Positions 8,502 to 36,760 of a stretch of DNA of 64,000 bases are shown here, piece after piece. Below the pieces are notes generated by a model that saw nothing but the letters and a program-made list of their open reading frames with translations, ran no database searches and was not told the origin of the DNA. Both the position numbers and the translations under genes were made by a program. How positions within the stretch are numbered: position 1 is the stretch's first letter; every line of letters starts with the position of its first letter. Origin of the DNA: Marsupella aquatica (lineage: Eukaryota; Plantae; Marchantiophyta); assembly GCA_973895155.1 (NCBI GenBank), contig OZ316892.1, forward strand, positions 15,182,861 through 15,246,860. The letters run 5' to 3'.

Positions 8502-9674
8502 CTGAAAGCGCAAATCGCATGCTTCAGATGACAAGGAGGAAAGATTTAGTTTTTATCAGCACAGTAGAAGGTAACATAAAAGGAAAGCTTGCTAGCATCC
8601 GGGATAAACAGGGTAAAGAGCTTGCACTGGTCATGACTTCAAGATGCTTCGTTTGAGTCACCAGATAGATCCCTGTCATTAGTGGCTCCATCAAAATCCT
8701 AGCATTTGCAGGGTATGGAAGGCCGGACGATATACAACATGTGCAATACTTCAAATAAAGACAAAACTGAAATGGGGGTGGACAAAAAGGATGGGACAAA
8801 GATTAACAAAATAACATAAAAATATTATTGTGCAAGATTTTTTTTCTTCATATTTGTTTATGTTCAAGGAAGGGGTAATCTGGCTAGTGGAACAAAACAA
8901 TCAATCTCCCCTTGTATACCTCTTGACTTCCCTATTTTTGGTTGGAAAAAGGTGAGGCTGTCATTGTGAATGAGTACCGACGTTGCTAGCTGTATTGTTA
9001 GAAACAAGTTGAACTGACCAAACATAGGCATCAGGCCAACGCTCATGACCATATTTGACCAGATAATCTGCACCTAGTGTGACCCCACAATTGGAGTAAA
9101 GAGGGCCACGTTGGAACTTGACAATTTACTCTTCATAACAAGGTGCTAAGGGTGGCTTTACATAATGTTGGTGGCCCACTTCTTTTTCTCTCCTCTAAAA
9201 TTAAGTTTGGACCACTTAATGAGTGGAGACAGCTGCAATTGGCTTTACAGAAACTTGGGGGCACAGGTATAGTGTCCCCTGATCCTACAATGGCAAGTAG
9301 TGGGCCCAAGTAAATACTGATGTGTAGTGTCTATTTTGCCTAGAATTGTTGACCACCACTAGAGGTGATTGAAACATTTGCAACCCTTGTCCCTTTCTCT
9401 CCGGGGGATTTGCATTTACTGAACTTCAATTCAAAAGATTTTTGAACTGGAGACTATCTTTGAAACAAGGAGTGGCCATGGGGTTTGCTTTGGTGAAAAA
9501 GCTACAAATGCCCCCACCCTAAATGCCATATTAAATAGCCCCATCTAGTTGGTGTCACCTATAGGGAGGTGGCACGTCAAGCTTGTGGTGAGAGGACCAC
9601 TAGTTCTTTGCCCCCTCTCTATGCGCCTTCAGCCAAAATTGCTCTTTGTTGGTTGCTCTTGCTCTCTTCTCAGC

Positions 9675-9850
9675 TGTCGTGACATATAGTATCGTAGCCA
9701 TAGTGTATCGAAAACATACAAGTCACCGGCAAGGCATATGTGCAAGCTGCTAGCAACCAACATGCATAGAAAAAGTCCAATCACATTCACAAGTACCAAG
9801 AAAAAGCAAATGAAGTGGTATGTACGTAGTGGAGGTGTAAACCTCTGTAT
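9675..9850 (-). repeat. Repeat B2 (176 bp), 3' terminus of the element
   Basis: Direct copy of 10211-10386 with about 6 substitutions, all transitions; ends in CACGACA on the element strand. Confidence 0.95.
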
Positions 9851-10208
9851 ATAAAAGGCGTAAGAGAAACAATTGTACTGAAATTGAATCGAAAACCGGC
9901 AGGATGCCAAGATCGGCCGGGAGCATCTAACGAATCACTGTGTGAATCCCGTGTATAGAACCGACGAGCACTGTCTGAGCTCTGTCAACAGCGATTCAAG
10001 AAGAACTGAAAACCCCCAAAGAAAGACATGCCCTAAGCAAGCAAAGTCCTGGCATCACACTAACAAGCACATTTGCTTCAAGAACGGCCCAGACTTGCTA
10101 CAAGAACATGTCACTAACTCAGGTAGTACACTAGCCCTAACTACATACCTAGCGGGCAGGCGAGGGACATGCCGATGTGCATAAGAGGCAATGTCCCTTG
10201 GCATGACA
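9851..10208 (-). repeat. Repeat A2 (358 bp)
   Basis: Direct copy of 25900-26257 with about 11 substitutions; begins TGTCATG on the element strand. Confidence 0.95.
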
Positions 10209-10210
10209 GC

Positions 10211-10386
10211 TGTCGTGACATATAGTATCATAGCCATAGTGTATCGAAAACATACAAGTCATCGGCAAGGCATATGTGCAAGTTGCTAGCAACCAACATG
10301 CATGGAAAAAGTCCAATCACATTCACAAGTGCCAAGAAAAAGCAAATGAAGTGGTATGTACATAGTGGAGGTGTAAACCTCTGTAT
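10211..10386 (-). repeat. Repeat B1 (176 bp), joined to A2 by a 2-bp GC spacer
   Basis: Copy of 9675-9850. The junction at 10202-10217 reads catgaca-gc-tgtcgtg. Confidence 0.95.
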
Positions 10387-10393
10387 CCCCCCC
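10387..10393 (-). other. Putative polypurine tract (G7) immediately 5' of B1
   Basis: A C7 run on + ends exactly at the B1 boundary, about 30 nt after the pol stop. Confidence 0.65.
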
Positions 10394-10425
10394 AGACCAC
10401 AGCCAAAAGGAGGGCTGAAGAAAAT

Positions 10426-11076
10426 TCAGGTAGCACGTGGAGCACAGGAAGGGCAAAACCATAACCCTTCTGGCACCTGGGTAAGTTCAGGCCGAAGACA
10501 GAAAAGATGGTACCCTCCATTGCAATTGTCACACAGCAGCATCTGGTCAGCATCATCAATTCGCAAACACACTTTGCAAGGGTAGTCCACAGGTGGAATC
10601 CAAGTAGAAGTCACAATGGTGGGATCCAGGTTAGGCAGATGACAAGGGGCGCAATTCTTGGCATTGTCAGCAATTGTGCGCCCATCTGCCCCTTGTAACT
10701 CTAGCACTCCCGATGGTCAAATAGCTTTAACCCTAAGAATAGTACGACTGGTAGAGGTGTCCAGGGTGTCGTTAGCTTGCCGTTGCAAGTACACAAAATC
10801 TCCCACTTCAAACTTCCTAACCTTGGGCTGAAAAGTGCCCCCTCGTGTGTGTGCATAACACAGTGTGTCCCTGTGCTGTGCGATGGCCAAATTCTCCATG
10901 GCCATGGGCATAACCCTCCTGAATAGGGCAGCCCTCTCAGAGATCACATCAGACCAAGTCACAGTTGAATCCAAGTCTACCACCTGAAGCATGTGAGCAA
11001 CAATAGCAGAAGGTGGAACTGGGTGACGACCAAAAACAAGAAGTAGGGAGAAAAGTTAGACAGTGATGCATGTCTG
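10426..11076 (-). pseudogene. Integrase C-terminus and C4HC3 PHD finger of the DNMT retroelement
   Basis: HASLSNFSPYFL..GRHP continues the integrase across the Copia insertion. It is followed by GDFVYLQRQ, an in-frame TGA at 10717, and CKVCLRIDDADQMLLCDNCNGGYHLFCLRPELTQVPEGLWFCPSC. Confidence 0.9.
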
Positions 11077-11479
11077 TGTTGGGTATTTACTCTTACGTCT
11101 AGGTTAGGTATGACGTGGTTGGTACAACAACGTGGGTTGGTACAACTACGTGATTAGGTACAACTATGTGGTTAGGTACAACTACGTGATTAGGTACAAC
11201 TATGTGGTTAGGTACAACTAAGTTGCACACTATATCATAAGAGGCATGTGTGCTTGGAGAGGTAGAACCAAGGCTCATTGTTATGGAGCCACTTGAGAGA
11301 TAGGGAGAGCTTACACTATGGAGACTCGGTATAGCCGACGGGCTTAGAGTTCAGTAAAGCTCTCTTGTGTGTTCCCGTGGACGTAGCCTCAAGGAGGTGA
11401 ACCACGTATCTCTTGTGTCGACTATTGTGCGTTGGATGGTTCATGGGCTTGCCGTTGCGATCGTCGTCTATGCTCAACA
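11077..11479 (+). repeat. Copia 5' LTR (403 bp; six copies of an ~18-bp unit)
   Basis: tgttgggtattt...tgctcaaca; matches 17120-17504 apart from one extra 18-bp unit. Confidence 0.97.
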
Positions 11480-11481
11480 AT

Positions 11482-11493
11482 TGGTATCAGAGC
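11482..11493 (+). other. Copia primer-binding site (tRNA-iMet)
   Basis: TGGTATCAGAGC, 2 nt after the LTR. Confidence 0.95.
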
Positions 11494-12807
11494 ATGCTTG
11501 GGAGGTGACGTGTGTTCGTGACGGGATTTCATTATGGTTTTTCCAGCATTGAGTGTCGGTGGATTTCCCGGAGTTCCGTCGCATGGAACTTGGAGTTTAT
11601 GGGCTCAACGGATAGATCGGGGCAAGAGCTTTCTAATGGTGTGAAGAAATCGTTGAACGGAGCTCGTGGTGCAGAGAGATCTAAGTTTTCGTCGTTCTGG
11701 ATTTTGTGAAGAAAGTTGGCAATCGACTCGGAGGGAGAAGCGTCAAGTGTTTTGACTCAACGGAGAGATTGAGGCAAGACGATTGTTTTGAGTCCGGGAT
11801 TGGCTCTTTGATGCAAAGAGGAAGGCTAAGCAAAATCAATTACCTTGTTGGATTGGTGACGGCACCAAGTGCAATTGATCAACATTCGTTGTTGACAAGG
11901 TACCATTTTTTCTCTTTGAAAAACTGATTCGAAATTGGCTATGGCAATTGAGAGAAATCTGTCATCTTTACCAATTTTTTTCTCCCTCGTTCTTTCCTCG
12001 TTTTGGGTGCTTCTTATATCGATCTTCACCGCCTCGAAGTCTAGTTTCCAAATCTGAAATCAGATCTTGATTTCGTCTAAACTCGAGTGAGATATCTTGC
12101 GTTTGGTGTCGAGGGGTACATTCTGCCGTGTGTATTTTCTGCGCGCGCGACCAGATTTCGACGACGAAGGGTGGTAGGGGGTTTTGGGGGTTCGAGGACA
12201 CGTGTCAGCCCCTCGATTGTTCTTCCAAAATTCCCACAAGGCCTGTACAAGGGTCATAGAATATTCCAAAAAACCATAGAGCTATTTTTTGACCGTCCGA
12301 CAAAGATTTCATCCGTCGAACGGTAACTTTTTTGGTTATTTTTTGGCGAGGTCGTAGCCATTGAAGTTGGCAACGCGGCGCACCAATCACATCGTAATTC
12401 CGACAACGGGTTGTACTTGGTATTTCGGTTATTCCCTGAGGTGGTCAAAACGGGGGAGTTTCCCAAGGTTTTACCCACCTCGACCGAAATTTGAATAACT
12501 TTTCCGTCAAATTTTGATTTTGATTTCGGTTTTTAGTATTGGACTCCTAGCTTTGTGGGCTACGCGGCGGTGTTGAGTTTCGAGTTTTTTGAGAAGTTGT
12601 GAAAAACAACAGTTTTTGTGACTTTCTCATATGAGTGATTCGGAGGAGTTTTTCGAAGACGTGGAACTTGAAGCATGAGGATCACCGCGGAGGTTTCAGG
12701 GGCAGAGAGAGGAGCAGGAGGAAGAGCACGTGACACCGATACCATCACCGGTGCGGCGTGTGGTGGAGGAAGCAGTACTACTACCGGAGCTCACGGTAAA
12801 GAAGAAG

Positions 12808-15800
12808 ATGGGGACTTTCAAGCTTGGGGGACCCAAGTATGAAGTGACAAAGTATGATGGGCGCTCTGACTACTTGCTATGGGAGAAGCAGGTGAAGGGA
12901 GTGCTTTATGCGTCAGGGATAGGCCAACTGCTGAGCCCTCGTGAAGACGATGTTGATGAGAAACAATGGGACCGCATGCAGGAGCAGGGAGTGTGGTGTG
13001 TTACACTCTATCTCATGCCTCCCATCATCAAGCAGTTGGGTGCACATAAGGATTGCATGTCCTTGTTTGCGGAATTGCAAAGCAAGTATCACCGCAAGGA
13101 GTTGTCGAACCGGCTCTACACTTCCTACAAACTGATGAGTTTCAGGATGAAGGAATCTGGTACGAAGTTGCAAGACCATGTGGATGATTTCAACGACATG
13201 GTCGTTGACTTGGAAAACCTTGGGGAGACTTTGAATGATGAGATGAAGGCTCTGCAGCATCTTAGTTCATTGCCTTCATCTTACCAGTCCCTATCACGAG
13301 TGTTGTTGCATCGTGATAGGGATACCATTTCATACAATGACGTGGTAAGTTCTCTGCTTAGTGATGATCTTCAGCAGAAGATGCACATCACGTCACAGCC
13401 TTCATCATCTGGTGCTGCCCTCAATGTTAACCGTGGGAGGAGTATGCAGCGACCAACTGGGGACCGTAGAACCCAGTTTAGATCTAAATCCAGATCTAAG
13501 TCCAAGGGTAAATCCCCTCAGAGGAGGCAGGTGACATGTTGGAAGTGCAACCAAGTTGGACACTTCAAGCGAGACTGTAAGGGAAAGGCAGCGGAAACTT
13601 CATCGGCAAATGTGGCTAGGGCTGATGGAGAAGCTGATTTACTCAATGATGAGTATGTTTTATGAAGCCAGGGGTATGCCCTGTGCACGTCATCTAGGAG
13701 AGCAGATGATGTGTGGATTCTTGATTGTGCTTGCTCTTTTCATATTTGTTACATTCGTGAGTTTTTCAGTTCTTACTCTGTTTCAAACGGTTCAGTTCTG
13801 ATGGGAAATGATCACTCCTGTCAAATTGAGGGAATTGGGTCTGTGAAGATTCAAATGTTTGATGGCGCTGTGCGCACAGTGTCCGGAGTCAGGTATGTAC
13901 CTGGCATGCGTAAGAATCTGATTTCACTCGGTGTGTTGGATTCAAATGGTCATCAATGGAGCGTTATTGATGGTGAACTTCAAGTCAGGTCGGGAGAGAC
14001 AGTGATTTTGAAGGGGAGTAGACAAAAGAATTTGTATGTGTTACAGGGCAATACTGTATGTGGAGAGGCCAATGTAACCAAGTCTCACGAGGAGATGACT
14101 CAACTGTGGCATTCACGGCTAGGCCACATGAGTGAGAAGGGTTTGGCTATCTTACGGAAGAATGGACTCATTTCTGATTTGCAATCTTGTAAATTAGAGT
14201 TTTGTGAGCATTGCATTCTTGGAAAGCAGCATCGTCGTGCTTTTGGTGTTGGAACTCATCGTTCCAAAGCGGTTCTTGAGTACATACATAGTGACGTGTG
14301 GGGTCCATCCCCGACTCCCTCACACTCTGGAAAGTTGTACTATGTATCATTTATTGATGATTACTCAAGATTTGTGTGGATTTATTTCATGACGCATAAG
14401 TCTGATGTCTTGTCCATTTTTAAGAAGTGGAAGGCCCAGGTGGAGAATCAGACTGGAAACACGATCAAGTGTTTGGATACAAGGGTGAAGAGTCTGAGGT
14501 CAGACAACGGCGGGGAGTACACTTCAATGGAATTTGAAGAGTACTGTTCAGAACAGGGGATAACTCGCCATCTCACCACAATTTATACTCCGCAGCAGAA
14601 TGGTGTCGTTGAGAGGCTCAATCGGACACTGTTGGAGCGGTCACGGAGTATGTTGAGCCAATCAGGTTTACCACAAGAATTTTGGGCAGAAGCTATCAAT
14701 ACCGCAGCTTATTTGGTAAATCTTTCTCCTTCTAGTGCTATCAATTTCAAAACTCCGTTTGAGATGCGCTATAAGCGGCAAGCAGACTATCATGGCTTGG
14801 TAGTTTTTGGAAGTGATGCATATGCTCTCACACCGAAGCAGAATAGGACCAAGTTGGATCCTACCTCCAAGAAATATGTTTTTCTTGGGTACCAGAGTGG
14901 TGTGAAAGCCTATAGGCTATGGGATCCTATTGCCTGTAAGCTCGTTGTCAGTAGGGATGTTTCCTTCAATGAATCCAGATTATTGAAGGAGGGGGAGAAT
15001 ACTCAGGTCTCCCGTACTGACAAAGAAAAATCTCCTATCCCGGATCTCGTTGAGGGGGAGATTGGTTATGAGGTGCATGACCGGAGAGAAGGAGTTGCTC
15101 CAATTATGGAGCTGGTTCCTGTGCCAGAGGAACCAGAGGAGTTTGTTGATGCTGGTGAGCAGCAAGTGGATGCTGTTGAGCTTCAAATTGTACCAGCACA
15201 CGCAGATCAACCGAAGTCATCGGCTAGAAGAACATCTGGTCGCACTGTACGTGCTCCACCAAGGTATGGACAGTGGGTTGATTCATCTCAACTGCAAGAA
15301 AATGATTTTGCAACTGATGATGAGGGTGATGCGTTAATTTTGGAAGAAGGGGAACCTTCTTCATTTCATGAGGCAAGTGCTTCAAAGGAGAAGCAGAAGT
15401 GGACTGCAGCAATGCAAACGGAGATGCAGTCACTAAAGGACAACAAAACTTGGGAGCTTGTTAAGCTGCCTAAGGGTCAGCAAGTGGTGGACAGCAAGTG
15501 GATTTACAAGCTGAAGGATAATTCCATAGGAGGTGGATCGAAGGTCTACAAGGCTAGGTTGGTAGCAAAGGGATTCACACAAGAGAAAGGTGTGGATTAC
15601 AATGAGGTCTTCTCACCAGTTGCTAAGTACTCTACAATACGACTATTGTGTGTACTTGTTGTAATGTTTGGTCTGCTGCTAGATCAGATGGATGTTGTCA
15701 CAGCTTTCCTCTATGGCACATTGATCTTCATGAGACAACCGCTAGGTTTTGTGAAGAGAGGACAGGAGGAATTGGTTTGCAGATTGCTGAAATCCTTGTA

Positions 15801-16929
15801 TGGGTTGAAGCAGTCACCAAGACAGTGGAACAAGCAGTTTGATGATTGGATTCGGTCACAAGGTTTTCACAGAAGTGTATTTGACCCTTGTGTGTATTTG
15901 AAATCGGTAAAGAATATTGTATTTGGGTTCATTGTTTTAGTACTTTATGTGGATGATATGCTAATTGCAGCCAAGGATAGGTCTGAGATTGTTAAGCTCA
16001 AGGCACTACTTAGTGCAGAGTTTAAGATAAAGGACTTAGGGCCAGCTAAGAGGATTTTGGGTATGGAGATCACTAGGGACTTGGAGGCTGGCAAGCTATG
16101 GTTGACGTAGAGCAGTTATGCGAAGAAGGTAATTGCAAGGTTCAACATGGGGAATAGCAAGCCAGTAAGTACCCCGTTGGCTCCACACTTCAAGTTATCA
16201 TCAGCGTTCTGTCCTACGGATGACACAGAGAAGGGGTTGATGTCAAAGGTTCCGTATGACAAGGCAGTGGGGAGTCTCATGTATTTGATGACTTGCACTA
16301 GACCTGATCTTGCCATGGCTATGGGCAAGGTAAGCAGGTACATGTCAAATCCAGGGAAGGTACACTGGGAAGCAGTGAAGTGGATTATCAGGTACTTGAA
16401 GGGTACCGTGGATCATGGTCTTTTATTTGATGCGAATGCAAAGAATGCTAAATCATTGATTGGCTATGTTGATTCTGACTATGGACAAGATTTGGACCGA
16501 AGGAGATCAACAACAGGATACGTGTTCACACTTGGCGGTGGATGCATAAGTTGGAGGTCTACTTTGCAGAAGTGTATTGCTCAGTCTACTACAGAAGCGG
16601 AGTATGTTGCAGCTGCGAAAGCAGCAAAGGAAGCGATTTGGTTGGATAGACTTATCACTGAAATGGGATTGTCACAGGGGAATGTGAAGCTCCATTGTGA
16701 TAGTCAAAGTGCGCTCCACCTTGCTATGAACCAGGTGATGGACAGCAGAGTGAAGCACATTGATGTCAGGTACCATTTTATCAGGCAGGCTGTGTCTGAT
16801 AATTTGTTTGAGCTAGTCAAGATTGATGGTAAACTCAACCCGGCTGACGCATTTACCAAAGTGATTCCTTTGGAGAGTTTCTCTAGACACCGTGACGTAT
16901 TGCAGGTTTTGCAATTGCATCACAAGTAG
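12808..16929 (+). pseudogene. Copia gag-pol polyprotein in one frame with two internal stops (TGA 13663, TAG 16108)
   Basis: CWKCNQVGHFKRDC knuckle, WILDCACSFH protease, WHSRLGH...CEHC and HSDVWG/SDNGGEY integrase, LYVDDML RT, GYVDSDY/CDSQSA RNase H. The three ORFs share a frame. Confidence 0.93.
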
Positions 16930-17108
16930 AGTTTTCTTAACATTCATTGTAATTACTGATATATGCTCTTCCTCATTCCTATGTATTAGGCTACGGCTTA
17001 GTTCTGGTTTGCTCTAGTTAGAGAGGGAAACCAGTTTGGTTTTTATCCAGAACTTCCCGCTGAGGGATCATATACATTGGCAGTATTACTCTCCCCTAGA
17101 CCAGAGTC

Positions 17109-17118
17109 AAGGGGAAGA
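17109..17118 (+). other. Copia polypurine tract
   Basis: AAGGGGAAGA just before the 3' LTR. Confidence 0.85.
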
Positions 17119-17119
17119 T

Positions 17120-17504
17120 TGTTGGGTATTTACTCTTACGTCTAGGTTAGGTATGACGTGGTTGGTACAACAACGTGGGTTGGTACAACTACGTGGTTAG
17201 GTACAACTACGTGATTAGGTACAACTATGTGGTTAGGTACAACTAAGTTGCACACTATATCATAAGAGGCATGTGTGCTTGGAGAGGTAGAACCAAGGCT
17301 CATTGTTATGGAGCCACTTGAGAGATAGGGAGAGCTTACACTATGGAGACTCGGTATAGCCGACGGGCTTAGAGTTCAGTAAAGCTCTCTTGTGTGTTCC
17401 CGTGGACGTAGCCTCAAGGAGGTGAACCACGTATCTCTTGTGTCGACTATTGTGCGTTGGATGGTTCATGGGCTTGCCGTTGCGATCGTCGTCTATGCTC
17501 AACA
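17120..17504 (+). repeat. Copia 3' LTR (385 bp; five ~18-bp units)
   Basis: Direct repeat of 11077-11479. Confidence 0.97.
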
Positions 17505-18785
17505 GTCTGGACATCCTATACCCCATGGCAATGTAGGGTAAGGCCAGGTCCCAATCCTCCTTGTTTTTGGTGAGGCAAATCTTCCGGAGACCCTTCTTGC
17601 ATGTCTGAACCATGCGCTCTGCCAAGCCATCTGCCTGTGGATGATCTCGTGATGTCCGGCGATGATCAATGAGGGCCTGATCAAGCAGCTCCTGGAACTC
17701 TCCTCTAAACTCTGAGCCCTGGTCAGTGAGACATTCTACACAAGCTCCAAAGCGACTGAGAACTTGTTGCAGGAATGCCTGGCTGGTGCTTAGGGGGGTC
17801 TTATCCGGCAATGCCACAAGTTCTATCCACTTAGAGAAATGCTCTATCATGATGATGATGTAGAGATTACCCCGAGACGTGAGGGGTAATTCTCCAGCCA
17901 AATCACATGACCAGCGATAAAACATGCCCTGAATAGGGAGTGGATGAAGTGTGAGTTGCTGAGATGTGAAAGAAGTCCTCACCCTATCACACTGTTCACA
18001 CCGGGCAATAACATCTTGAACCTGGCCATGCATGCCTCTCCAATGATAATGAGGGACCAAGAGGCTGTAAGTCCTCTTAACGCCAAAATGACCAAGCTCA
18101 GAATGTACCTTACGGATAAGGCCAACCCTCTCATGAATGGGTGGAACCACCACTTCCCTGTCTGGCAAGCAGCGCACGAGATGATCTCCCTTCCACAAGT
18201 AACGCTTGGACCTTTGCTGAATTCGGTCTCTCTGGGCAGCAGTAACATGGGTGGGGTACTCCCCATGCTGCAGAAATCTCAGAGTGTCGCTGTCCTCCCA
18301 TATGTCCACCACAGGTTGGTCAACAATGTAGCATGGCAGCAAAGCAAGATAGGTAGATGCATGAAATGTAGGCAGGACGGAAACCTGGTCAAAATTCTGC
18401 TGTGCGTCTGAGGAATCATCAGAGGCAATCAAAGGGCTGCGGGACATAGTGTCAGCATTTTGATGTGTCACACCAGGCCTATGAATTACCTCAAAATCAT
18501 ACTCCTGGAGTATGAGCGCCCAACGAGCAAGCTTGCCAGTAAGCTTGTCGTTGGTCATCAACCACTTCAAGGGCTGGTGGTCGGTGTAGAGAACAAACCT
18601 GGTCCCATAGAGGTAGGGCCTATAATGTATGATAGCCCACACAACAGCAAGGCATTCACCCTCATAAGAAGAATAATGACTCTCTGCCTGATTGTTGCTC
18701 CTGGATGCATAGGCAATGATGTACTCTTTACCTTCCTCATCATGCTGGCCCAAAATGGCACCAATCCCAAGGGCACTCCAATCTG
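17505..18785 (-). pseudogene. RNase H and integrase (HHCC and DDE core) of the DNMT retroelement
   Basis: DWSALGIG..IAYASR..EGECLAVVWAI..TDHQPL..NADTMSR; HSELGHFG..CEQC; CDLAG, TDQGSEF, GLAERMVQ. Confidence 0.95.
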
Positions 18786-19830
18786 TGTGAAATCAGGTCT
18801 TCTCAGCACCGGGTATTCTGAAAGCTTCTCCTTCAAAGTGGCAAATGCTGCCTCAGCATCTGTACTCCATGTCCAAGTCACATTCTTTTTCAACAAAGCA
18901 TACAATGGGTGTGCAATGGTACTGAAATCTTTGATGTAGATCCGGTAGTAATTGCACAACCCAATAAAACTCCTCAAAGTGTGAACATCGGTAGGAGTGG
19001 GCATTTCCAAGATGGATACCACCTTGGCCCAGTGAGCCATGGTTCCATTTGGAAGAATGCGATGCCCAAGATATACTACTGATCTGACAGCAAATTCACA
19101 CTTATTGGGGTGTATCTTTAGGTTCACCTTCTTAAGCCTCATGAATAGCTCCTCAAGGTCAAGTAGATGCTGGTCAAATCCTTTATTGTGGACCAACACA
19201 TCATCAATGTAGCATTTCAGAAACTCAGCACCTTGAAGAACCTGGTCCATGACTCTTTGAAAGAATATGGGCGCATTCTTCAAGCCAAATGGCATCACCA
19301 ACCACTCCCATAGTTGGTTACTACCATGGAAAGCTGTTTTCTTGCGGTCCTTTGCAAGCAGCAAAATCTGGTTAAAGCCTTGCCTTAGATCCACAAGAGT
19401 GAAGATGTCTGAGTCTCCAATGCTGTCAAATAGCTCCTCTGGCCGTGGCATGGGGTACCTGTCCTGGGGTGTGACCAGGTTTAGCGGCCTGTAGTCCCCA
19501 CACATGCGCTTCTCTGTCCACAATCCACTGGAATCCTTCTTTGCTGGCATCACTGTAGCTGTTGCAAAATCTGATGTAGATGGCTGAATAAGACCAGCTT
19601 CATATAACTCTTGGCACCTCTCATCCACCAGCTGACACTCATGCTTACTCAAACCGTGTCTCCACCTGAAGATAGGTGTTTCATCAACCAAATCAATGGA
19701 GAACTGCATAGTCTTGCACTTACCCCAGTCCTTCATAGAGAAAGCAAACACATTCTCATGCTTGAGGAGCAAATTCAGCAGCTGGTCCTTCTGTCTTTTA
19801 CTCAGGTGGTTGCCCATGATGAATGTGTAG
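18786..19830 (-). pseudogene. Gypsy-type reverse transcriptase of the DNMT retroelement
   Basis: KRMCGDYRPLN, DRYPMP, DLRQGFNQI, MPFGLKNAP, YIDDVLV, YLGH. It is in frame with the C-terminal half of the methyltransferase. Confidence 0.96.
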
Positions 19831-20189
19831 TTGGCAACACTAGGAATAGGACCTGATGTACTCGTACTTGAAGAGCCAGAAGTGCTAGCCTCTCCACTGT
19901 CCAAGCTGCTAGCATGCTGCTGATAAGGTGATGAGGCCTCTCCGAGGCCTGTTGTACCTGCTGATCTGGGTTGGTCCACACCATGAAACTCAGAAATAAT
20001 ATCAGCCACATTACAAGGGACCTCCTCCCCCCCAACACTTGGACTGAAGCGATGAGTGTTGAATAGAGGTAAGTGCACCTGGTCAGGATGCCATGTAGCA
20101 GCACCATGGAGTGGTAGAGCTGGAACTCCAGATGCTGGATGAATGTACATCTGAAAAAGGATGCAAGTGACCAGAAGCCAAGTGAGAGC

Positions 20190-21120
20190 ATTAAGATCCA
20201 TTACCCTGCCAAGTAAAGCATTCCTGGCCAGCCTGGTGATCTGGGTGTGACCTGTAGTACCGGATTGGAAGCCCATAGCCCGTTCTCTCTCCTCAGGATT
20301 AGGTTCATCCCAAGTACCGGTAGAATGTCGATAAACCAGGCCAGGACCATCACCCTGAAAGGCATGTGCACCTGGAAAGGATACAAATGTAGGCCAAGCA
20401 GCACGGGGCTGTCCAATGGTATTGGCTGGATACCAAGGTGCTGGCTCTTGCCGTGTAACTGGTTGGCAAGAACTGTCAGGATCCAAAATCTGGTCCACTA
20501 TGAGGTTAGTGTCCCTGGATGTGTGGTGAAGAGCTAACTCCAACAAGGAAGGTGGTGCAAGGTTAGTCCAAAAGTTACGAAGACGATGTGCATAAGAACC
20601 ACAGTGCACTGCATCAATGAGAAGGGGTGGTCCCAAGTAGTGTTGGACCACACTGAAATCCTCTTTGACCTATGGACGCTGGTCAAACTGAGATGGAGTA
20701 TTCTCAATGATATAACCAACAGCAGGATAAAGGGACTGAGCCCAGGTGAGAATCTGAACCAATGCTGTGAAAAGGCCAGAACGAGAATCATGCAGTCCAG
20801 CACCGTGACCAGCAGCTGAAAACCCTTGGCATTCCCAACCAGCTATGATCAAATCAAGGGAGCCAAGAAGGGTTAAGTGTCGGTGCTGGACAAGCTGGAT
20901 ATCTGGAGGAAAGAAAGAAAATGCAGACTTCCATGCACTATGTGGAAACTGCTGGGGAAATCGCTCTGAAAATTCCAACAGACGGGATTCAGCCACTTGC
21001 CTTGCACCTGGATCAATATCCACATAGATGTACTACTTCACCACCATGCCAGACTGTAGGAGAGCTTCCAGGCCTGTAGAAATGCCACCAAAAAGCTCAA
21101 GCAATGTAAGGCCATCTGAA
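20190..21120 (-). pseudogene. C5 cytosine DNA methyltransferase domain (DNMT3-like) inside pol
   Basis: Ordered motifs: I LELFGGISTG, II YVDID, IV DLIIAGWECQGFS, V DSRSGLF, VI IIENT, VIII AHRLRNFW, IX ERERAMGF, X RLARNALLGRVMD. One frame, broken only by TAG at 21033 and 20670. Confidence 0.9.
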
Positions 21121-21341
21121 GGAGGAGTCCATGTAACTGGTGCGCTCAAGATTGGGGCTATTGATTGGCCATTGTGCTGCCCAAGATCCTCAAATTTGCG
21201 CAATGCAGCCACCAAAGGTCCATGGGCTGCTTGGAGCCGTTGTACCACCTCTGGTTGATGATCCACGTTGCTGGAAAGTGCTGCTATACGTGCAGCAGCA
21301 TGTGCAGTAGCCACCTCATCATCATCCTCCTCAATCCAATC

Positions 21342-22724
21342 CTACAATGGGTGGTTGACATAGGTAGCTGTGTGCACTGCTTTCAACACACAGTGGTGAG
21401 CCATAGGTGTATGGGCACCGTGCAAATCAAGTGGAATGTAGCCCAAGTGTGAGCCATCCGTATGCCAATCAACTCTGTAGTATGCATGCTCATGCCAGTT
21501 GTCAATGGTAAAACCTGGTGGGAACAAAGCCTCCTGGCCAATGAGCACATCATACGTAGTGGCATTGGTAACCAAACATCTGACTGGGAAATGCAATTCC
21601 TGATCTGTACCTCCATTAAAAGTGAGAGTGAGTAAAGTAGAACTCTCACCCAGCACATCCTCCACAGTGCCACTAGCAGTCCGAATGTGCCACTTGGATT
21701 GCTGTAAATGATCAGTCAACAGTCCCATCTTCTTGGCAAACTGAATGCCCAATATCACTGGTTGAGCACCTGTGTCTAGCATGACCACCTGAGGAGCGTG
21801 ACCCTCCAACTTGACCACTGAATTCCTGTTGTCAACAATGACAATAGTGGTGGAAACTGAAGTCCTGTCACTAGGCACCACTCTCGGCAAATGATGAGGT
21901 ACCTTGTGAAGGGAGTTAGTGTCCACGGTCTTTCCACTCAACAACATAGCCAGGAAAGATGGAGTAGCATGACCAGAATCAAGTGTAGCTCTGGTCACAC
22001 AATCAATAGCAATCGGTACTGGGGCAGCCAAACCAGTGGAAACATGTAAAGGAGAAGAAGAAGGTCCAGTATGTACATGAGATTGGACCTCCAAAACCGG
22101 TGTCACAGGGGCTGATGAAGAATGCAGTGAACCCTCTAGCGCTCTGAGGACAGCTCTAGCATCCAGCTGTAAATCATGGCAATTGAAAAGTAGAGTTGTA
22201 AGAATCCTTTGTGCCATACCGGAGGTGACATGCTCAAGTAGCTCAGGAGAAACAACTCCCTGTGAAATGTCAGCAGCACCTGGTGGTGGAATGGATGTAG
22301 TTGCAGCTCCCTCCCCCCTCGCCAACAAGGTGCGCTCTTCAGCAAGTGTGAGTGGCTGAAAAGATTGGGGCAAGACAGCCCGAGCTCCCCTGGCTCTAGT
22401 CATAGGACCGGCAGCAAGACCATCAGCCTGTACAATGCGGCGTGTGGGAGCAATACGAGAGGCAGCACTGGCTTGCTGGTAAGCAAAATAGGAAGGGCAG
22501 AATGAATCTAAAAATTCTGCTGTAAGGCCAGGCTGTGGAGCAGAGGACAACACACACTCACCCATATGAGCATCAAATGGCAAGCCATAGAAAGAGCGGG
22601 ATAGAGGTGCTGAACTGTCAGTGGTGTCTGGGTTGCACGTGACCAGCCGGTTGAGAAGGACCAGCAGAGGTAGTTGACTTGCCTTTGATGTTGGCAAGTT
22701 GGGCACGTAGGGACTCAACCTCAT
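21342..22724 (-). pseudogene. Pol N-terminus with retropepsin-like aspartic protease
   Basis: VMLDTGAQPVILG...IRTASG...YDVLIGQEAL; same frame as the DNMT and RT across a TAG at 21342. Confidence 0.88.
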
Positions 22725-24192
22725 GAGTCAGAGACTGGAGTTGAGTTGCCTGTGCGTTGTGAGCCTCCTTCTGAGCTGGTGGCTTCTGTTGCTACTTGGG
22801 CAATTTGTTGGCACTGGTTGCTTTGCCACTGGAAGGAGGAGCAACTGATGCAATAGGAGCCCTCCTAGCTGGTGGGGGAGTGGAAACATGAGCAGGATGA
22901 GTGGCCTGTTGTCGTAGCTGTTTCCTCTCTAGGAATTTGGCAAAACAAACTGCCTCCAAGTGGCCCACTTTCCCGCAAAAATCACAAGACAGGTCCTCAG
23001 CAACAATATCACATTCATTAGCCTTGTGATTAGGATTGCCACAGTAGTTGCAAGATGGCAGCATGAAAGCAGCATGTGCTGGTTTGGTCTTGGAAGCATA
23101 CTATGGCACACGGGAAGGGGTGGTCATTGTAGGAGTAGCAGCCTGGTACCTGGATCGCGGTGGACGCGCAATACTGGCCTCATAATGTGCATGGGCCAAC
23201 TCAAGTTTCTCAGCAGTGTCATAGACATTGAGCAATGTGTAGCTGTCTCCAAACTCTGAGAATACTTGCTGCAACACTTGTGAATGGAGAGCTGGTGTGC
23301 CCGCCAATGCGCAAAGATAGCGATGAGCAGCTTCTAGGTCAGTGATGCTCTGGGTGTCCTCCTTCAGCTTAAGAAGCCGGCGATACATCATCTTCAAGGT
23401 TTCATCGCGCTGCCTCACAAAGGTCGCCAACTGCATGATTTTGTCAGCACTCTTGATTGGGAATTCCAATTCAAGAACCTGGAAAAACTCAGCGACTGGA
23501 TCAGCAAAGGCAGGAGAATCAATAGTGGGAGAAATGCCTGATGTAGCCTGTGCCAAGACAGTGGGAGTAACTGGCGCAGTGGTAGGAACTGGAGTAGGAG
23601 GGGAAGTGGCAGGAGCAGCAACATGGGCTGCAATGGCATTATGTAAGGCCAATTGTGAGGCTGCCATAATTGCACTGGCATAGGTAGGGTTTGTTAACTG
23701 TGTGATAGCAAGCAGCCATTGAGAGTGCTGCTCATACACATCCAAAGCCTCATAGTGCACATACCTGGCTAGTTGCTTGAATGCAAAAGCATTGGTGAAA
23801 TTGCTGCCGTACTTCAACTCCAATTCGTAAATGACAGTGTAGAAAGTGGATTTGAACTCACACAAAGAAACAGTGCCTGGTCGCCCGCTGAAGAGCTCAA
23901 TGCGGCCAGATGAGTGGCTAGCATCCATGCTGTATGTCGGTGAAGCTGGAACAACCACTAATGCATAAGGGGTAAATGGCAAGGAAGTGATAGCAGGCTT
24001 CGGGGTAGTGGTGAAGCGACCGCCAAATTGAGCAGAAGGATTGTGTGGTGTGGGTGCTGCTGCTGTCTGCGGACATTGTCGAAATTGCCGAGACTCCAAT
24101 GAAATTGGCACCAACGGTCGTGGATCACTCCGTAAGTGGTACCGGGGTGTCGATGGCGATGAGCTGCTACGACTCGGCTCCTCTGCTGACAT
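22630..24192 (-). pseudogene. gag-like ORF with two Cys/His knuckles
   Basis: 363-aa ORF, in-frame TAG at 23101, CNYCGNPNHKANEC and CDFCGKVGHLEAVC, TAG at 22792, then a coiled-coil-like tail. Confidence 0.8.
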
Positions 24193-24869
24193 GCTGCATG
24201 CTCACCTGGGGTGCCAATGGAAAAGAAACTGACAAGAAAAATAAATGGCACCCTCAAGGCTAGAAAATTAACCTACAATGAAGCAACAGCGTGAGGCAAA
24301 AATGTTGTGGCCTTGATGTGCATACCCGGGCGTGTAGCCCTATGCGGATTACCGGCGGTTACCAAATGTCCGGGACCAAATGTCAGCGGCTGTGAAGAAA
24401 TATAATGAAATGGACCCCCTTAAGTGTATACATCGGGACCCCCTGTAATTATGCATTGGGCCTGATGTGGACACAGGAACTGACGGAAGGCGCACATCGA
24501 CAGAAAAGAAAAATCAGGTGGGGACCGGCAACCGAGCGAGTGTGCATACACACTCGAGCACGGTGCCCTATGCAGTCGGAGGGAGGTTCTCGCGCGGCGT
24601 TTGAGGCAAGTCGACGCCTTGCCGGCTACAACCCACGGATTGCAGGTCGCGGCAGCTGGGCTGGAAAATGGAAAAATGGGTCTTCAAAACGCGAACGGGC
24701 CCCAATGTACACATCGGCCCTATGTGGACCCGAGAAATGACAGCAGGTCGATCGTCGCGCGGCGAAAAAGCGAGAATGGCCGAAAAAGGGGAAAACGGGA
24801 CCCAAGGCGAGGCGAGGAAAAAAAACACAGAAGAAGCAGAAGTGGGCCTTAATTGCGCGAGCCCTGCAT

Positions 24870-25325
24870 AGGGCTTCGCACCGCCCCCTCCTTAAGTCCT
24901 TATGAGCTCCCGAAGGGAAGCTACGAGTTCCCCCTTCCCCTCCTTAATGATTCCTGGTGGGCCTCGTGCCCTGCAGAAGTGTGACTCCCAAGAGGAGGGA
25001 GTCTAATTGAATTCCCCCTCCCCTCTTTAATTCAGCATAGGGCCTCGTGCCCACTCCTTGCGCTGCTGCCTCGGCTTTGTCTCCCCCCTCCTTTAATGCT
25101 GCTAAATGTGCTTCATGCCCTGCAGGACTCCTGAGAAGGGAGTCGTATGTATTCCCCCTCTCCCCCTCTTTTAATTCCTCATAGGGCTTCGTGCCCTTCT
25201 TTCGCTTCCCCCTCTCCTGCGTGGCTGGTGCGCGGCTCCCCTCTCCCTCCTCTTTAATGCTGAAATGGGGCCTGGCAGGATGACTCCCGAGAGAGAGAGA
25301 GTCGTATGTACTCCCCCCCTTCTTA
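24870..25325 (-). repeat. Degenerate array of hairpin modules in the element's 5' leader
   Basis: Recurrent + strand motifs cccctc(c/t)ttaa, gggc(c/t)tcgtgccc and gactcc...ggagtc; the last two are self-complementary. Confidence 0.7.
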
Positions 25326-25886
25326 CTGTTTTAGAGGCGCGAAGCTGGCTCGGCAGCCGTGGCCGGGAGAGACAAAAAAAACGTTTGAGGGGCCCCCAAG
25401 GGTCGACTCGAGCGGGGGCGCAGCTCCCTATGTACAGACTGCGAAGAGCCGGGGGTGGTAGCGAAAAATGGGCACACGGCCCTATACACTGACAATCGGG
25501 AGGTGGCAGGGAGGGACCATGGCCGGAAACTGCAATAATCGGGCCCCAATCGTTGCGCTACGGTCGGGGCAAGTTCACCAGTAGTGTGTGGCCGGGAAAA
25601 TACCGAAAATGGCCCGAAAAGGTCGAACGTGCACGAGGGCGCAGCGCCCTATGCAGCAGCCGGAAGCAAGTTTGCAACAGCAGGTCGGCAATCGACGGAG
25701 GGGTCGCGGATGCACCCGGGAAGGAAAAATTGGGTTCCAATAGAAGCGTTATGTGTATACATAACGTGACATTAAACCCATAATTTCAACTCGTCACTCC
25801 GATGTCCGTCGAAGAAATTGCAATGGCTTCACCAGAAATTGTCGAAATTGCCACGAGCAATCTTCTTCTCCTCACCGCTAACTCGG

Positions 25887-25901
25887 CAGTTCTTCTTGAA
25901 T
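25887..25901 (-). other. Putative self-priming primer-binding site
   Basis: cagttcttcttgaat (25887-25901) is the exact reverse complement of attcaagaagaactg (26043-26057) inside A1 and abuts the A1 boundary. No TGG-type tRNA PBS is present. Confidence 0.75.
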
Positions 25902-26257
25902 AAAAGGCGTAAGAGAAACAATTGTACTGAAATTGAATCGAAAACCGGCAGGATGCCAAGATCGGTCGGGAGCATCTAACGAATCACTGTGTGAATCCCG
26001 TGTACGGAACCGACGAGCACTGTCTGAGCTCTGTCAACAGCGATTCAAGAAGAACTGAAAACCCCCAAAGAAAGACATGCCCTAAGCAAGCAAAGTCCTG
26101 GCGTCACACTAGCAAGCACATTTGCTTCAAGAACGGCCCAGACTTGCTACAAGAACATGTTGCTAACTCAGGCAGTACACTAGCCCTAACTACATACCTA
26201 GCGGGCAGGCGAGGGACATGCCGATGTGCATAAGAGGCACTATCCCTCGGCATGACA
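25900..26257 (-). repeat. Repeat A1 (358 bp), 5' terminus of the element
   Basis: Direct copy of 9851-10208; not followed by B. Confidence 0.95.
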
Positions 26258-26322
26258 CAGCCCCAGTTTTTTATTGGTGACCTTGTGGATAGTTCAGGCA
26301 GTTTCAGGCGCTGCAACACTGG

Positions 26323-26424
26323 TAGACATATGATTTGGCCCTTGGGTTTGTGTTGCCTTGTGTCCCACTGGTTTAGACATATGATTTGGCCCTTGGGTTT
26401 GTGTTGGCTTGTGTCCCACTGGTT
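26323..26424. repeat. 51-bp tandem duplication (2 copies)
   Basis: tagacatatgatttggcccttgggtttgtgttg.cttgtgtcccactggtt at 26323 and 26374. Confidence 0.9.
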
Positions 26425-27701
26425 TTTGCCGCAGTGGCCTCTCAAAGTTTTTCTTCTTGGGGGAAAAAAAAACTCATCTACACTCCAACTTCCTTTTCTC
26501 ATCAACAAACAATCTCATTGACACTTTTATGGACACGTCTTTTATGGCAATGAGTTGCTAGTGATCTTTTAGATTGCGAATCATCCCCCAAAAGCAGGGG
26601 AGTCATTAAGGTGCTTCTTTTGTTGTTTTCGTTATAAGCCACTTAAAATTCTCTGTGTTTTTTTAACAGCAAAGAACCTTTGGGGCAAAGGCTTTCATCC
26701 ACCACTGGCGAAAGGTCCCTCTCAATAACATGGTTCTTTATCTAACTCCAAAACACAGCCTTCCTCATAATTACTCACTAAAAAGTGCTCCAAATACAAT
26801 TCTGCAAGACCTACAAGATACAGTTCTGCACCCGTACAGGTGGGGAGTATGATGCGAAAGTACACATCTGGTGTGGTCTCATCTGTGATTGAAGGTAATT
26901 CTTCGATTTCCTTCGATACCAAGTCAAAGGCTACAAAAAACTGCGAGACATATGCAGTGTTGGACAGAGGAAGCTGGGATGAGTTGGTATGTCACAGGTA
27001 GCGAACGCACTTAACTGTCACCAAAAGTACAAAAGCTTCCGCCTGCAGCCTGGGTTCAGCTATTCCACACCACAATTTCAGCATATGCAGATATCCATGA
27101 AAAGTTAAGCCCCACTCCTTTCAGAATGTCCTTCCAAAATTGTAGCTTTCAATTTGTTAGAGAAGAACACCCTAAATTGGAGTCAGCTGAGTGCAATCCA
27201 ACTTGCAATTCCGCGTTGAATTGCACGAATGTGCCACCAAACTCGAAGATGTTACAATCATTGACTGCTCCCAGAAAACCTGCAAACCTGCAGCTAACAT
27301 TCTATCCAATGCTTCTCGACGTATGTTCAAGCATTTCAATTTTCAACATAGCCCCCAAAAGCTAAAGGGGTAAGATGGCAGTTTAAGGGACTGCAATATT
27401 CCTCTCCCTAAGATGAAAAGATTCGCCCAATGCAAGTAATGAGCAAGAATCAATTTATCTTCATAAGATAATCCCACATTGCATGAACTTACTCGTAAAT
27501 CCTCAAATCTAGCAAAGGTAATCTGTTTATAAGCATCTTGTGCGCGGCTTGCATCTTCTCCGCGCGCGTCCTGTTTCCCCCGCAGAAAGAATGTACAAGC
27601 TCCACTTCATCTAATTTGCAATTGACTAACTGGTTTATGAGGTGCTTTAGAGTCATATTTCCGATCCAAGCTCCTTATAAACTGTACAAATATACAAGCA
27701 A

Positions 27702-29528
27702 CTAAAATTGCCATTCAAGATAGTCCTCTACTTCCTTTTGGCTGTCATAGTCCACTGTATTCCCAATGGTCTTGTCTTTCTCGTGCCCCCATATGTAATT
27801 TAAGCCAACCAACAGCTCTGTAATTGCTGCCTCACTTTTAGCTAGATCTGCAAAATAGAGTGTTTGAAGCAAAAGAATGTTGGAGCGAGCTACGACCTGC
27901 TGCTGCTCGAAGTTGTGCTCAGACTGCCAACGAATCATATTGTGGGCCAGGGGGGTTAACCACGCAAGTATTCTTTCCAAAGCATCCTTCCAATGACTAG
28001 CAATATCACCATCAAAGCCATCTTGCTTCCTCATTCCTGCCTTGAGTCTGGACCTCAGAGCCATTCGCACGCTCTTTGGTAGCATGTTGTACAGATCATC
28101 CCTGGAATCATGAGATATAAGATGTGGAAACTTGATCATCTTCTCAATGATGATGACAACGTTGGCGTAGTGTAAAGCCAGAGCAGCACCTCCAAGGGTG
28201 GTAGACGGGGCGTTATGATGCCTGTGTTTTGGATCAAAGAAGACTTTCCTGGTGTGACCGGTCTGACTGAAAAGATCATGATTTGAAGACACACTGGGTA
28301 TCCTGAAAGGAGTTCTAAGGGGAAATGGTTGAGAGCTGCGGAGGGAGGCCGGGCTGAGGGTCTCTGCCAAATTAGACCATTGAGTGCCTGTCCCAACCTT
28401 ACTAGAAAGGCTGATCGGGTTGTCGTGAGGGCTATCTATTGCGAGGGCCTGAAAATCCATGGACCCCCTCGTAGGGGATTGAAGGCAAGTTTGATAGAGA
28501 GGAAAATAGCAAGGATTAGGTTTTCTAGATTGACTAATGATTGGCCCAGAACTTAGAGCCGGGCGTAAGTCAGAAACCACAGGGGATACTCGAGAGACAT
28601 AAGAGCTACTTACTGAATTTGTGATTGCCCCGCTAACAAAGGTGCGATCATGAGGAGAGCCAGGAGTGAAAGGCCCCACGACTACTGGGCCAATTGAGGA
28701 TTGCCGTTCCAATCCTCTGCGCGGAGGTGGAGGTGTCAGTTTAATAAAGGGCGAAGCTCCAGTCTTCAGAGGAGCGTCTCGTAATCTTTCAACGGGGAAC
28801 AGCTGAGGCAACCCCAGGAGAGGAGAACCAAAGACTGTTATAATTCTTCCATGAATGGTGCACACAGTTCGTGCGAGAAGGGTTACAATTTTGTCATAAG
28901 TGCTATTCCAAAGAGATAAATCTCTCAAGTACTTGATTTCCTGTCGATGCCATAATGCTTTCTCCTCCAGGGCAACCAATGTTTCTCTGTCACGCGGGGT
29001 ACCTGACCCGTCATCCTGCATCCTTCTGATGGCGATCTCCAAATCTCCTAGAATCTCTAGTTCCTGGTACAGATGCGACGTTGAAGCGATGAATTGATCC
29101 ATCTTCTTAACCTTTGCTTCCATGTCTTTGAGAGCGAATTCCCATTTTTGGACATCAATCTTATGCTTCAGTACGTCGTCATAGACATGCTCGAAACCGT
29201 GCAGTACCTGTTCTTGACATTTCTTCCCCAGTCGGGCAACTGCCCCAGCTACTGCTGTCAGGTCCTGGAGTTTTTCCATGCAAGCCAAACTGAGAAGGAC
29301 AGCCTCTTTGTCAGATACCAGGTTTAGAACGCCCTCAGCTTTGATCACATCTGTTCTAAGCCGAAGGATCTCATGATCACTCAAAGACTGCCACAGCAGC
29401 ATGATCTTTGACATTACATTTGCCACCTCAAAGGAAAGGATTCCTATTTTCGCTTTCTCGGGTTTTGCACCCTTCTTCTTCCGATCTCGTTCTATCACCG
29501 CCTTGATGGTGCTCACCTGGCTCCCCAT
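27702..29528 (-). CDS. DUF3475/DUF668 domain protein (PSI-related family), intronless CDS
   Basis: IGILSFEVANVMSK (DUF3475) and TLGGAALALHYANVVIIIEK..RDDLYNMLP..WLTPLAHNMIRWQSE (DUF668). The first ATG gives MGSQVS, an N-myristoylation-like start. Confidence 0.93.
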   Translation of the reverse strand: MGSQVSTIKAVIERDRKKKGAKPEKAKIGILSFEVANVMSKIMLLWQSLSDHEILRLRTDVIKAEGVLNLVSDKEAVLLSLACMEKLQDLTAVAGAVARLGKKCQEQVLHGFEHVYDDVLKHKIDVQKWEFALKDMEAKVKKMDQFIASTSHLYQELEILGDLEIAIRRMQDDGSGTPRDRETLVALEEKALWHRQEIKYLRDLSLWNSTYDKIVTLLARTVCTIHGRIITVFGSPLLGLPQLFPVERLRDAPLKTGASPFIKLTPPPPRRGLERQSSIGPVVVGPFTPGSPHDRTFVSGAITNSVSSSYVSRVSPVVSDLRPALSSGPIISQSRKPNPCYFPLYQTCLQSPTRGSMDFQALAIDSPHDNPISLSSKVGTGTQWSNLAETLSPASLRSSQPFPLRTPFRIPSVSSNHDLFSQTGHTRKVFFDPKHRHHNAPSTTLGGAALALHYANVVIIIEKMIKFPHLISHDSRDDLYNMLPKSVRMALRSRLKAGMRKQDGFDGDIASHWKDALERILAWLTPLAHNMIRWQSEHNFEQQQVVARSNILLLQTLYFADLAKSEAAITELLVGLNYIWGHEKDKTIGNTVDYDSQKEVEDYLEWQF

Positions 29529-35313: not shown

Positions 35314-36760
35314 TTCTGGTTGGGAAAATATCATCATTTCCGTTTGGCGGTTTCCCTTAGTGTCGCGACCGCCGTGGCTCACGACTTCAGCTCACCCTTA
35401 GCCCCCAGGGAGACATCACTCCCCTCATATATGCTCTGGGGGACTGCCACCCCTGGACCAGCTTTGGTCCCTAAATATTTGGCCCCCAACCCGGATCCCA
35501 TCGCGCATAATGGGTGCGCCACCAACTGGCAACGCCCATAACTTTCTTGATAGGCATCCGCAAGCGGAGTGCCTTAGCCCATTGTGACCGGGTCAACCCA
35601 GTGCTCATGCCTAGGCCCTCAGGTCTGATCGCCGCTCAGGCCCCCCGACCGGCCCAACCGGGATTGGGCCACAACTTGCGCCCCAAGCGTCCGTTGCCAA
35701 TGGCGTCAACTCCATTGGCCTTGGGCCCAAGAGGAGCTCACACTCAAGCCCCCAGAACTCAAAGTTCATCCAGAGGTCCGAACGGCCATCCTTGAGCCCA
35801 GCCCATTTCCCCTTGACCCGACCAGCCATCGGTCAGTCCAAGTCCTTAGTGTGTGTCCCCAGCTTGGCTCCTTGCCTCGCTAGTGCCACGTCTCATTGCC
35901 CACAAGTCTCCCCATGCTAAGTCCTCCCCGGATGGCCTATCCGGGCGTGGACCATAAGGGAGCTCGGCGTCGGAGTCAGCGACGCCGGAGCTAAGTGTTA
36001 AGGTAGTCGAGTTTCGCAACTAACCCTCCCCCTTTGTGTGGATTGCCATGCACTCAAAAAACAGACAATGAAGAACAAATACCCATTACCTCACCAAGAC
36101 TACTTGTTCAATGCTTTGGTGGATGTTGAGAAAGGTCTAGCCAAGTACTTTTCTAAGCTGGACCTTAGGACAGGATATAACCAGGTCCAGGTGGCCAAGG
36201 GCCACAATAGTTTGATGGCAATTAGGACTTGATTTGGGTCCTACAAGTTTTTGGTGATGTCTTTTAGCTTATCCCATGCTTGGGCTATGTTCATGAGTTC
36301 CATGATCTGTTGGACCAAGAGGTGGCGGTCTTCTTGGATGATATCTTGGTTTAGGGAAGACTCTGGACGAGCATAACGGCCTTTTGCAAGAAGTGCTGAA
36401 GACTTTGTGAGACAATGCTCTGCATGGAAAGCCTAGTAAGTGCAACTTTGTCATCCAACAAGTTGAGTTCCCTCTGCCACATGATCGCACCAAAAGGGAT
36501 GACCCCAAGCCTGGACATGTCAAGGTCATTCAAGAATGGGAGACACCTACCAATCTCAAGGAAACTTGCTTGTTAGTAGGTTTTGTATATATCCTTCTAT
36601 CAAAGTTCCATCAAGAACTTTGGGAAGGTGCTATGTCCCTTGTACAGCTTGTCAAAGAAAGGCAAGGTGTTTTTTTGTCCAAAGAATGCAAGGCAGCACC
36701 CCAGGAGTTGAAGGAGGCAATGATGTTGCTTCCAGTTTTGAACTTACCCGAGGCGGAAAA

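Follow-up and report, generated by a model that had tools for sequence, protein, structure and literature searches.

Organization of the element in the window

The window, i.e. the whole stretch of 64,000 nt of Marsupella aquatica DNA analysed here, contains on its minus strand a Ty3/Gypsy element of the domain order PR-DNMT-RT-RH-IN-PHD, inserted between two copies of a 4-bp target-site duplication, CAGC (9671..9674 and 26258..26261, plus strand). The element occupies 9675..26257, starts with TG at 26257, ends with CA at 9675 and carries split repeats in the order A1-coding-B1-A2-B2; this length includes a nested copia element of ~6.4 kb. Repeat A1 (25900..26257, minus strand, 358 nt) comprises the 3' part of U3 followed by the predicted R-U5. 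The coding part, on the same strand, begins with gag-like frames (22792..24201), the second of which has a CCHC zinc knuckle (zf-CCHC, E 8e-5); a Pfam search with the 366-aa gag-like frame gave no match. The aspartyl protease frame (21342..22727) is followed by a C5 cytosine methyltransferase domain (20151..21155; PF00145, E 2.8e-7), located between protease and reverse transcriptase (RT) and broken by stops in the window copy, and by RT, RNase H and the integrase core (17494..19832), where the frame changes from RT to RNase H. The nested copia lies between this core and the C-terminal part of the integrase (10444..11040), at whose end there is a PHD finger (PF00628, E 4.2e-13). With its stops, frame change and nested insertion the window copy is broken.

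A run of seven G (10387..10393, minus strand) closes the polypurine tract, and repeat B begins at the next base. B1 (10211..10386, minus strand) represents the 5' part of U3 and ends with ACGACA; together with the start of A2 (9851..10208, minus strand) it forms the near-palindromic B|A junction ACGACA-GC-TGTCAT (10203..10216), the predicted integrase cut site. At the joint of A2 with B2 (9675..9850, minus strand) the sequence CCTTTT-AT-ATACAG consists of the end of A, the first two bases of the predicted primer-binding site described below and the start of B; we regard it as the predicted circle junction. In contigs from four sequencing runs (two studies) the repeat was covered far deeper than its flanks and occurred in many variant contigs. 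The A|B joint at 25900 was also seen as loose ends in divergent contigs of runs X1 and X4.

The nested copia (about 11100-17505, plus strand) lies inside the integrase gene, has LTRs 98% identical to each other and served as an internal control for priming sites. LTR-like copies related to it are present at about 36760-37070 and 52950-53200. The window further contains two intronless host-type open reading frames on the minus strand, 27702-29561 (DUF3475 and DUF668, 619 aa) and 40205-41983 (SRP54-family GTPase, 592 aa), and a 35-nt tandem repeat array at 42376-43170 with degenerate copies downstream.

A perfect inverted pair at the inner edge of A1

An earlier reading of these letters alone (hereafter the sequence-only reading) had claimed a perfect 15-nt pairing between the inner edge of A1 and a sequence upstream within A1, with an initiator-like TTCAGTT at the upstream arm. 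Both observations proved exact: positions 25887-25901 (CAGTTCTTCTTGAAT on the plus strand) are the reverse complement of 26043-26057 (ATTCAAGAAGAACTG) over all 15 nt, a spacer of 141 nt separates the two arms, the pairing extends no further at either side, and TTCAGTT is present at 26059-26053. On the element strand the arm 26057-26043 lies inside A1 (26257-25900), and the arm 25901-25887 begins 2 nt within its inner edge. In dinucleotide shuffles of 25870-26257 a perfect inverted repeat of at least 14 nt was reached in none of 5000 trials and one of 13 nt in 2/5000. The whole 64-kb window has one longer perfect pair with arms no more than 400 nt apart, the 16-nt core of a 39-nt inverted repeat (87%, 46-nt spacer) at 4556-4679. 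Such a length is therefore rare, not unique, and the argument is carried by the position of the pair and its conservation.

The same reading had proposed a self-priming site in place of a tRNA-type primer site, and in this it was right as far as a TGG is concerned: none occurs in the 40 nt after A1, which begin ATTCAAG. An Rfam search of 25500-26500 gave no match, and ARAGORN found no tRNA in the 64-kb window. The nested copia carries a canonical TGG primer site, TGGTATCAGAGC, at 11482. We take that site to be complementary to initiator tRNA-Met.

A1 and A2 differ at 11 positions, none of them in the upstream arm. Among the 40 of 91 variant rows listed in a first comparison of reads there was no substitution in either arm and one minor 1-nt gap at 26043, too few rows to count as evidence. 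A second comparison, over 25862-25932, gave no variant rows and carries no weight for conservation of the primer site within the window element's own family. A divergent subfamily seen in reads of runs X2 and X4, with a loose end at window position 26027, has two substitutions in the upstream arm.

Counterparts in two further families

A metagenome scan yielded 560 confirmed loci, of which 80, with RT 65-79% identical to that of the window element, were kept as family B. Its repeats gave no blastn match to window A1 and were located through their self-repeats. From 34 A-region segments we removed six 3', solo or cut-off copies (L012, L027, L031b, L052, L054 and L074) and two duplicates (L055 and L064), leaving 26 5' copies of A, which share common ancestry and some of which are one insertion seen in different assemblies. 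A counterpart of the pair is present in 26/26 of them, the arm being searched for 26-37 nt after the TATA box only. Over 14 bp the pairing is perfectly Watson-Crick in 4/26, holds at 12/14 or more positions in 20/26 and has a minimum of 9/14. One perfect copy, L049, has the arms AGTTTTTCTAGAAT and ATTCTAGAAAAACT, a pair length reached by one of 5000 shuffles.

Two pairs have changed on both sides between the window and family B. Pair 5 is C-G in the window and T-A in family B (T in 26/26, A in 25/26), and pair 10 is T-A in the window and A-T in family B (A in 26/26, T in 24/26). The loops of the two are about 51% identical. The 3' architecture of family B agrees with that of the window element: all 18 B1-A2-B2 ends examined have the G-run|ATACA edge, which is identical in 31 family-B rows, and most have the CA-GC-TG junction. 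Among three full-length copies the 4-bp target duplication is exact in one and has one mismatch in two.

Family C is represented by one contig, L145, the only one of 38 loci from a genome-contig search that full-length Pol match and tree place in the clade. Its Pol is 50% identical to P0011, its domain set is that of the window element including DNMT and PHD, and it has the same G run; the B|A junction of the ACGACA-GC-TGTCAT type is common to the window element, family B and L145. A perfect 13-bp pair, ATCTTTGTCAAGT (7239-7251) and ACTTGACAAAGAT (7415-7427), occupies the equivalent places and begins at the A of a CA. Its sequence is unrelated to that of the other families, the similarity of its loop to their loops is no greater than in shuffles, and a pair of 13 was reached in 0/5000 shuffles. 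L145 looks intact, with long open Gag-PR-DNMT and RT-IN-PHD frames and one stop between them. It was assembled as a circle and filed in a cyanobacterial bin; it is likely to be a methyltransferase-Gypsy element of a plant or alga that entered the bin as eukaryotic contamination.

The sequence-only reading had proposed looking for compensatory changes among relatives, and these were found in families B and C: the pairing of arm with site is kept with changed sequence in all three families, at equal placement, with loops of 103-163 nt whose sequences are unrelated. Three families thus carry this compensatory signal, of which family C is known from a lone contig.

Start site, primer and cDNA end

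The nucleotide preceding the arm is paired in only 4/26 copies of family B and unpaired in family C, so the conserved duplex is one of 14 bp that begins with the A at 26056. The start of transcription, placed near 26057 by the sequence-only reading, is thus probably better set at 26056, the A of a pyrimidine-A initiator, with the C at 26057, complementary as well in the window copy, as -1. The predicted self-primer arm is then AGUUCUUCUUGAAU (26043..26056, minus strand) and the predicted primer-binding site AUUCAAGAAGAACU (25888..25901, minus strand); the latter lacks TGG and overlaps the end of repeat A by its two leading bases (25901-25900).

In family B the word TATAAA stands 32 nt upstream of the arm in 22/26 copies and 31-33 nt upstream in all, which counts as one family-level observation. 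L145 has a weak TATA-like word, TATAG, 29 nt upstream, and no TATA box was found in the 200 nt upstream of the window arm. TTAGGG words occur at 26085-26080 and 26189-26184 (minus strand), which is 29 and 133 nt upstream of where transcription is predicted to start, and also in repeat A of family B and L145. We take them to be a promoter element of the telo-box type, which possibly replaces the missing TATA box in the window copy.

The primer site had also been said to fix the cDNA end. This stands to within about 2 nt; it does not hold exactly, as repeat A overlaps the site by AT and the A|B joints of family B keep between 0 and 3 of its bases. In 14/16 joint rows of that family, which represent about 13 distinct insertions because some loci recur across assemblies, the joint lies within 0-3 nt of the start of the site. 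AT is kept in seven clear rows and one probable row, three bases in four and none in two, and two rows have an insertion. This spread in family B fits end-joining of a cDNA whose end would lie at the primer site. Against the model, one read contig retains just about 9-10 bases of the primer site (loose end 25893). The AT at the joint would be explained by a primer of 12 nt, or by one of 14 nt with two bases left behind. In many family-B copies CA stands directly before the primer site, where the window has TTTT.

Folding and covariation

Each arm pairs with its own site at -15 to -17 kcal/mol, whereas cross-family swaps give -0.7 to -10.6. For each of the three sequences folded (window, L145 and L067 of family B) the minimum-energy structure contains the helix. 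The folds of L145 and L067 are more stable than shuffles (z -2.6 and -3.8); the 207-nt window fold is not (z -0.71), and the helix is missing from its centroid. When 257 nt of the window were folded, pairs 1-12 had probabilities of 0.58-0.80, and the last two, the weakest of the duplex, had 0.2-0.3. The L145 duplex forms only with an RNA that starts at the arm; with starts 11, 39 or 183 nt further upstream its probability was 0. A 12-bp hairpin, formed by an inverted copy of the arm, spans the predicted start of L145 (7228-7255) and would block the arm in read-through RNA.

A formal covariation test on alignment A3 (27 rows), in which a MAFFT gap splits the primer site and leaves 9/14 pairs countable, gave a result that did not exceed the shuffles (175-413 of 500). 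This is expected if 26 of the 27 rows belong to one decaying family, and no compensatory change was seen within family B among its 26 copies.

Phylogenetic placement

In an IQ-TREE phylogeny (LG+G4, 31 rows) the window element, families B and C, proteins from Closterium, Marchantia and Calypogeia and the unlabelled P0074 form one branch (100/99), separate from six chromovirus-type rows (99/96) that stand as proxies for Tf1, which is not among the rows; a 73-row FastTree agrees. Of these proxies, P0094, L158, L160 and L164 have a confirmed SH3_Tf2-1 domain and L158 also Chromo, and P0114 and L169 are labelled by branch only. The window element and L145 gave no match to Chromo or SH3_Tf2-1 and carry the PHD finger instead. 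Among the 120 of 408 RT matches listed, the named relatives are from Calypogeia, Marchantia and Closterium, and no named Klebsormidium sequence appears; searches of a viral collection with the RT of the window element and with alignment A1 gave no match. The window element and L145 sit on different sub-branches, so self-priming is likely to be old in the clade. It may have arisen there anew, or may be ancestral and lost elsewhere; the 31-row tree is compatible with both. The locus L083, the one examined of 64 loci that a scan of the viral collection with alignment A2 gave, proved to be env-bearing, TGG-primed and outside the clade.

Proposed replication cycle and alternative explanations

Taken together, the observations support the self-priming interpretation given by the sequence-only reading. 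We hold it highly probable that the 5' end of the element RNA folds back, is cut and primes minus-strand DNA without a tRNA. In the predicted cycle RNA polymerase II would start at 26056, at the pyrimidine-A initiator and, in family B, 32 nt downstream of the TATA box. The RNA's 5' end would anneal to the primer site, which lies 141 nt downstream, and be cut after base 12 to 14, the primer being released probably by the RNase H whose domain the element carries. Strong-stop DNA would copy 25902-26042 and then jump to A2, and the plus strand would start after the G run, giving a linear cDNA with B and A at both ends. Joining of these ends would create the A|B joint, after which the integrase would cleave the CA-GC-TG palindrome inside one repeat, and insertion with a 4-bp duplication would restore the order A1-coding-B1-A2-B2. 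Integration from a joined circle is inferred from this layout and the target duplications, and is further favoured by the placement of both predicted cDNA ends, at the primer site and the G run, away from the integration ends. Papers on the cutting of palindromic LTR-LTR junctions by integrase exist (PMC1905944, PMC1180852).

The duplex might instead be a conserved RNA structure acting in packaging, dimerisation or translation control, with a tRNA fragment or another host RNA as the primer. The absence of a TATA box from the window copy would agree with this, self-priming is here a prediction from sequence, and half-tRNA primers are described for plant copia lineages (PMC6317226). We nevertheless consider it unlikely, given that one arm starts at the predicted cDNA end in both families where this end is readable, and that the primer sites of the three families differ and each matches its own upstream arm only, so that the sites do not track a shared host RNA. 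Still less probable, in our judgement, is that template switching during reverse transcription produced the pair as an inverted copy, a by-product that has no function and is passed on or made again. Inverted copies do arise around this site, as the extra 12-bp copy of the arm just upstream in L145 illustrates, but the equal placement of the pair in three families, with loops of unrelated sequence, speaks against a by-product, and self-priming itself predicts that copying renews the primer site in each cycle from the 5' end of the RNA. As to chance complementarity, the arms are A/T-rich and the window has its 16-nt pair elsewhere; set against the shuffles (0/5000 for the window and for L145, 1/5000 for L049) and the two-sided changes between families, coincidence is hardly credible.

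Relation to known elements

Self-priming at a site next to the 5' repeat that complements the first bases of the element's own RNA is the arrangement of Tf1 and Tf2 of Schizosaccharomyces pombe and of the wider Tf1/sushi group (Tj1, Tosmo and plant Tcn1), with which the window element also shares the Ty3/Gypsy domain order. In Tf1 the RNA's initial 11 bases anneal to the primer site, and cleavage by RNase H falls between bases 11 and 12 (PMC7175516, PMC4600332). The Tf1/sushi elements are described as chromoviruses with ordinary LTRs that end in CA before the site and with a pretzel of three duplexes (bioRxiv 10.1101/2022.12.06.519325), whereas the window element has a PHD finger in place of a chromodomain, a methyltransferase domain, split repeats, a duplex of 13-14 bp and a separate RT branch. 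The designation "Tf1-like" given by the sequence-only reading therefore suits the priming mechanism and does not extend to group membership, against which the missing chromodomain, the RT outside the chromovirus branch and the split repeats speak. As its clade lies outside the chromoviruses, the element is likely to resemble Tf1 in how it works and yet to stand apart from the Tf1/sushi group, and a further origin of self-priming, outside chromoviruses, is likely.

A C5 methyltransferase domain in a Gypsy Pol and A-coding-B-A-B repeats, seen here in the window and in the 18 family-B 3' ends, are also features of KnitGypsy-Dnmt3 of Klebsormidium nitens, reported as Gypsy Pol with a Dnmt3-like domain and DIRS-like repeats (de Mendoza et al. 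2018, PMC5890265); the A-coding-B-A-B layout is given there for DIRS. Kinship with this element, which we compared by its description, is suggested by the architecture and by the RT relatives in Closterium, Marchantia and Calypogeia. The DIRS, Ngaro and PAT elements use a tyrosine recombinase; the window element has instead rve and H2C2 integrase domains and a 4-bp target duplication.

One survey predicts self-priming for 12% of the LTR elements of plants; Neumann et al. predicted it for Tcn1 and for TAR (PMC6317226). The TAR lineage (Houba, Osr-1) thus provides, as does the window element, a predicted case outside Tf1/sushi, but it belongs to the plant Ty1/copia superfamily and has ordinary LTRs. 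Phygy of a moss and Selgy of a clubmoss resemble the window element as non-chromovirus Gypsy elements of non-seed plants with 4-bp target duplications; they differ in their tRNA primers (Trp 81% and Ala 90%), and the survey entries for them list no extra polyprotein domain (PMC6317226). Skipper elements, as described in PMC5006619, lack TGG, yet have no self-complement of this kind.

Neither self-priming nor the split-repeat Dnmt3 Gypsy is new in itself; their combination probably is. Priming is not discussed in section 9 or three supplements of PMC5890265, and our literature search, beyond whose reach lay most subscription journals and the Repbase reports, returned no prior report on priming in the split-repeat methyltransferase Gypsy clade. 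The pair thus offers a testable start of reverse transcription for elements whose layout was presented, in those parts of the publication, without a priming model. We tentatively extend the interpretation, at somewhat less than an even chance, to a streptophyte-wide non-chromovirus Gypsy clade in which self-priming evolved independently of Tf1/sushi and TAR and went together with obligatory circularisation: a self-primed cDNA end would lack an att site, so that joining of the ends would precede cleavage of an internal CA-GC-TG palindrome by a DDE integrase. If this is true, the clade would contain a retroelement with a two-repeat circle as its normal integration precursor. For annotation, programs that look for TG...CA LTRs and filters that require a tRNA primer site overlook these elements, and the pair of 5' arm and primer site can be used to annotate their starts.

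The loop holds a further, shorter sequence complementary to the 3' half of the primer arm, at 25941-25934 of the window (minus strand, CGATTCAA) and in family B (GGATTTCTAGA), which could be an alternative fold or a piece of a pretzel-like structure.
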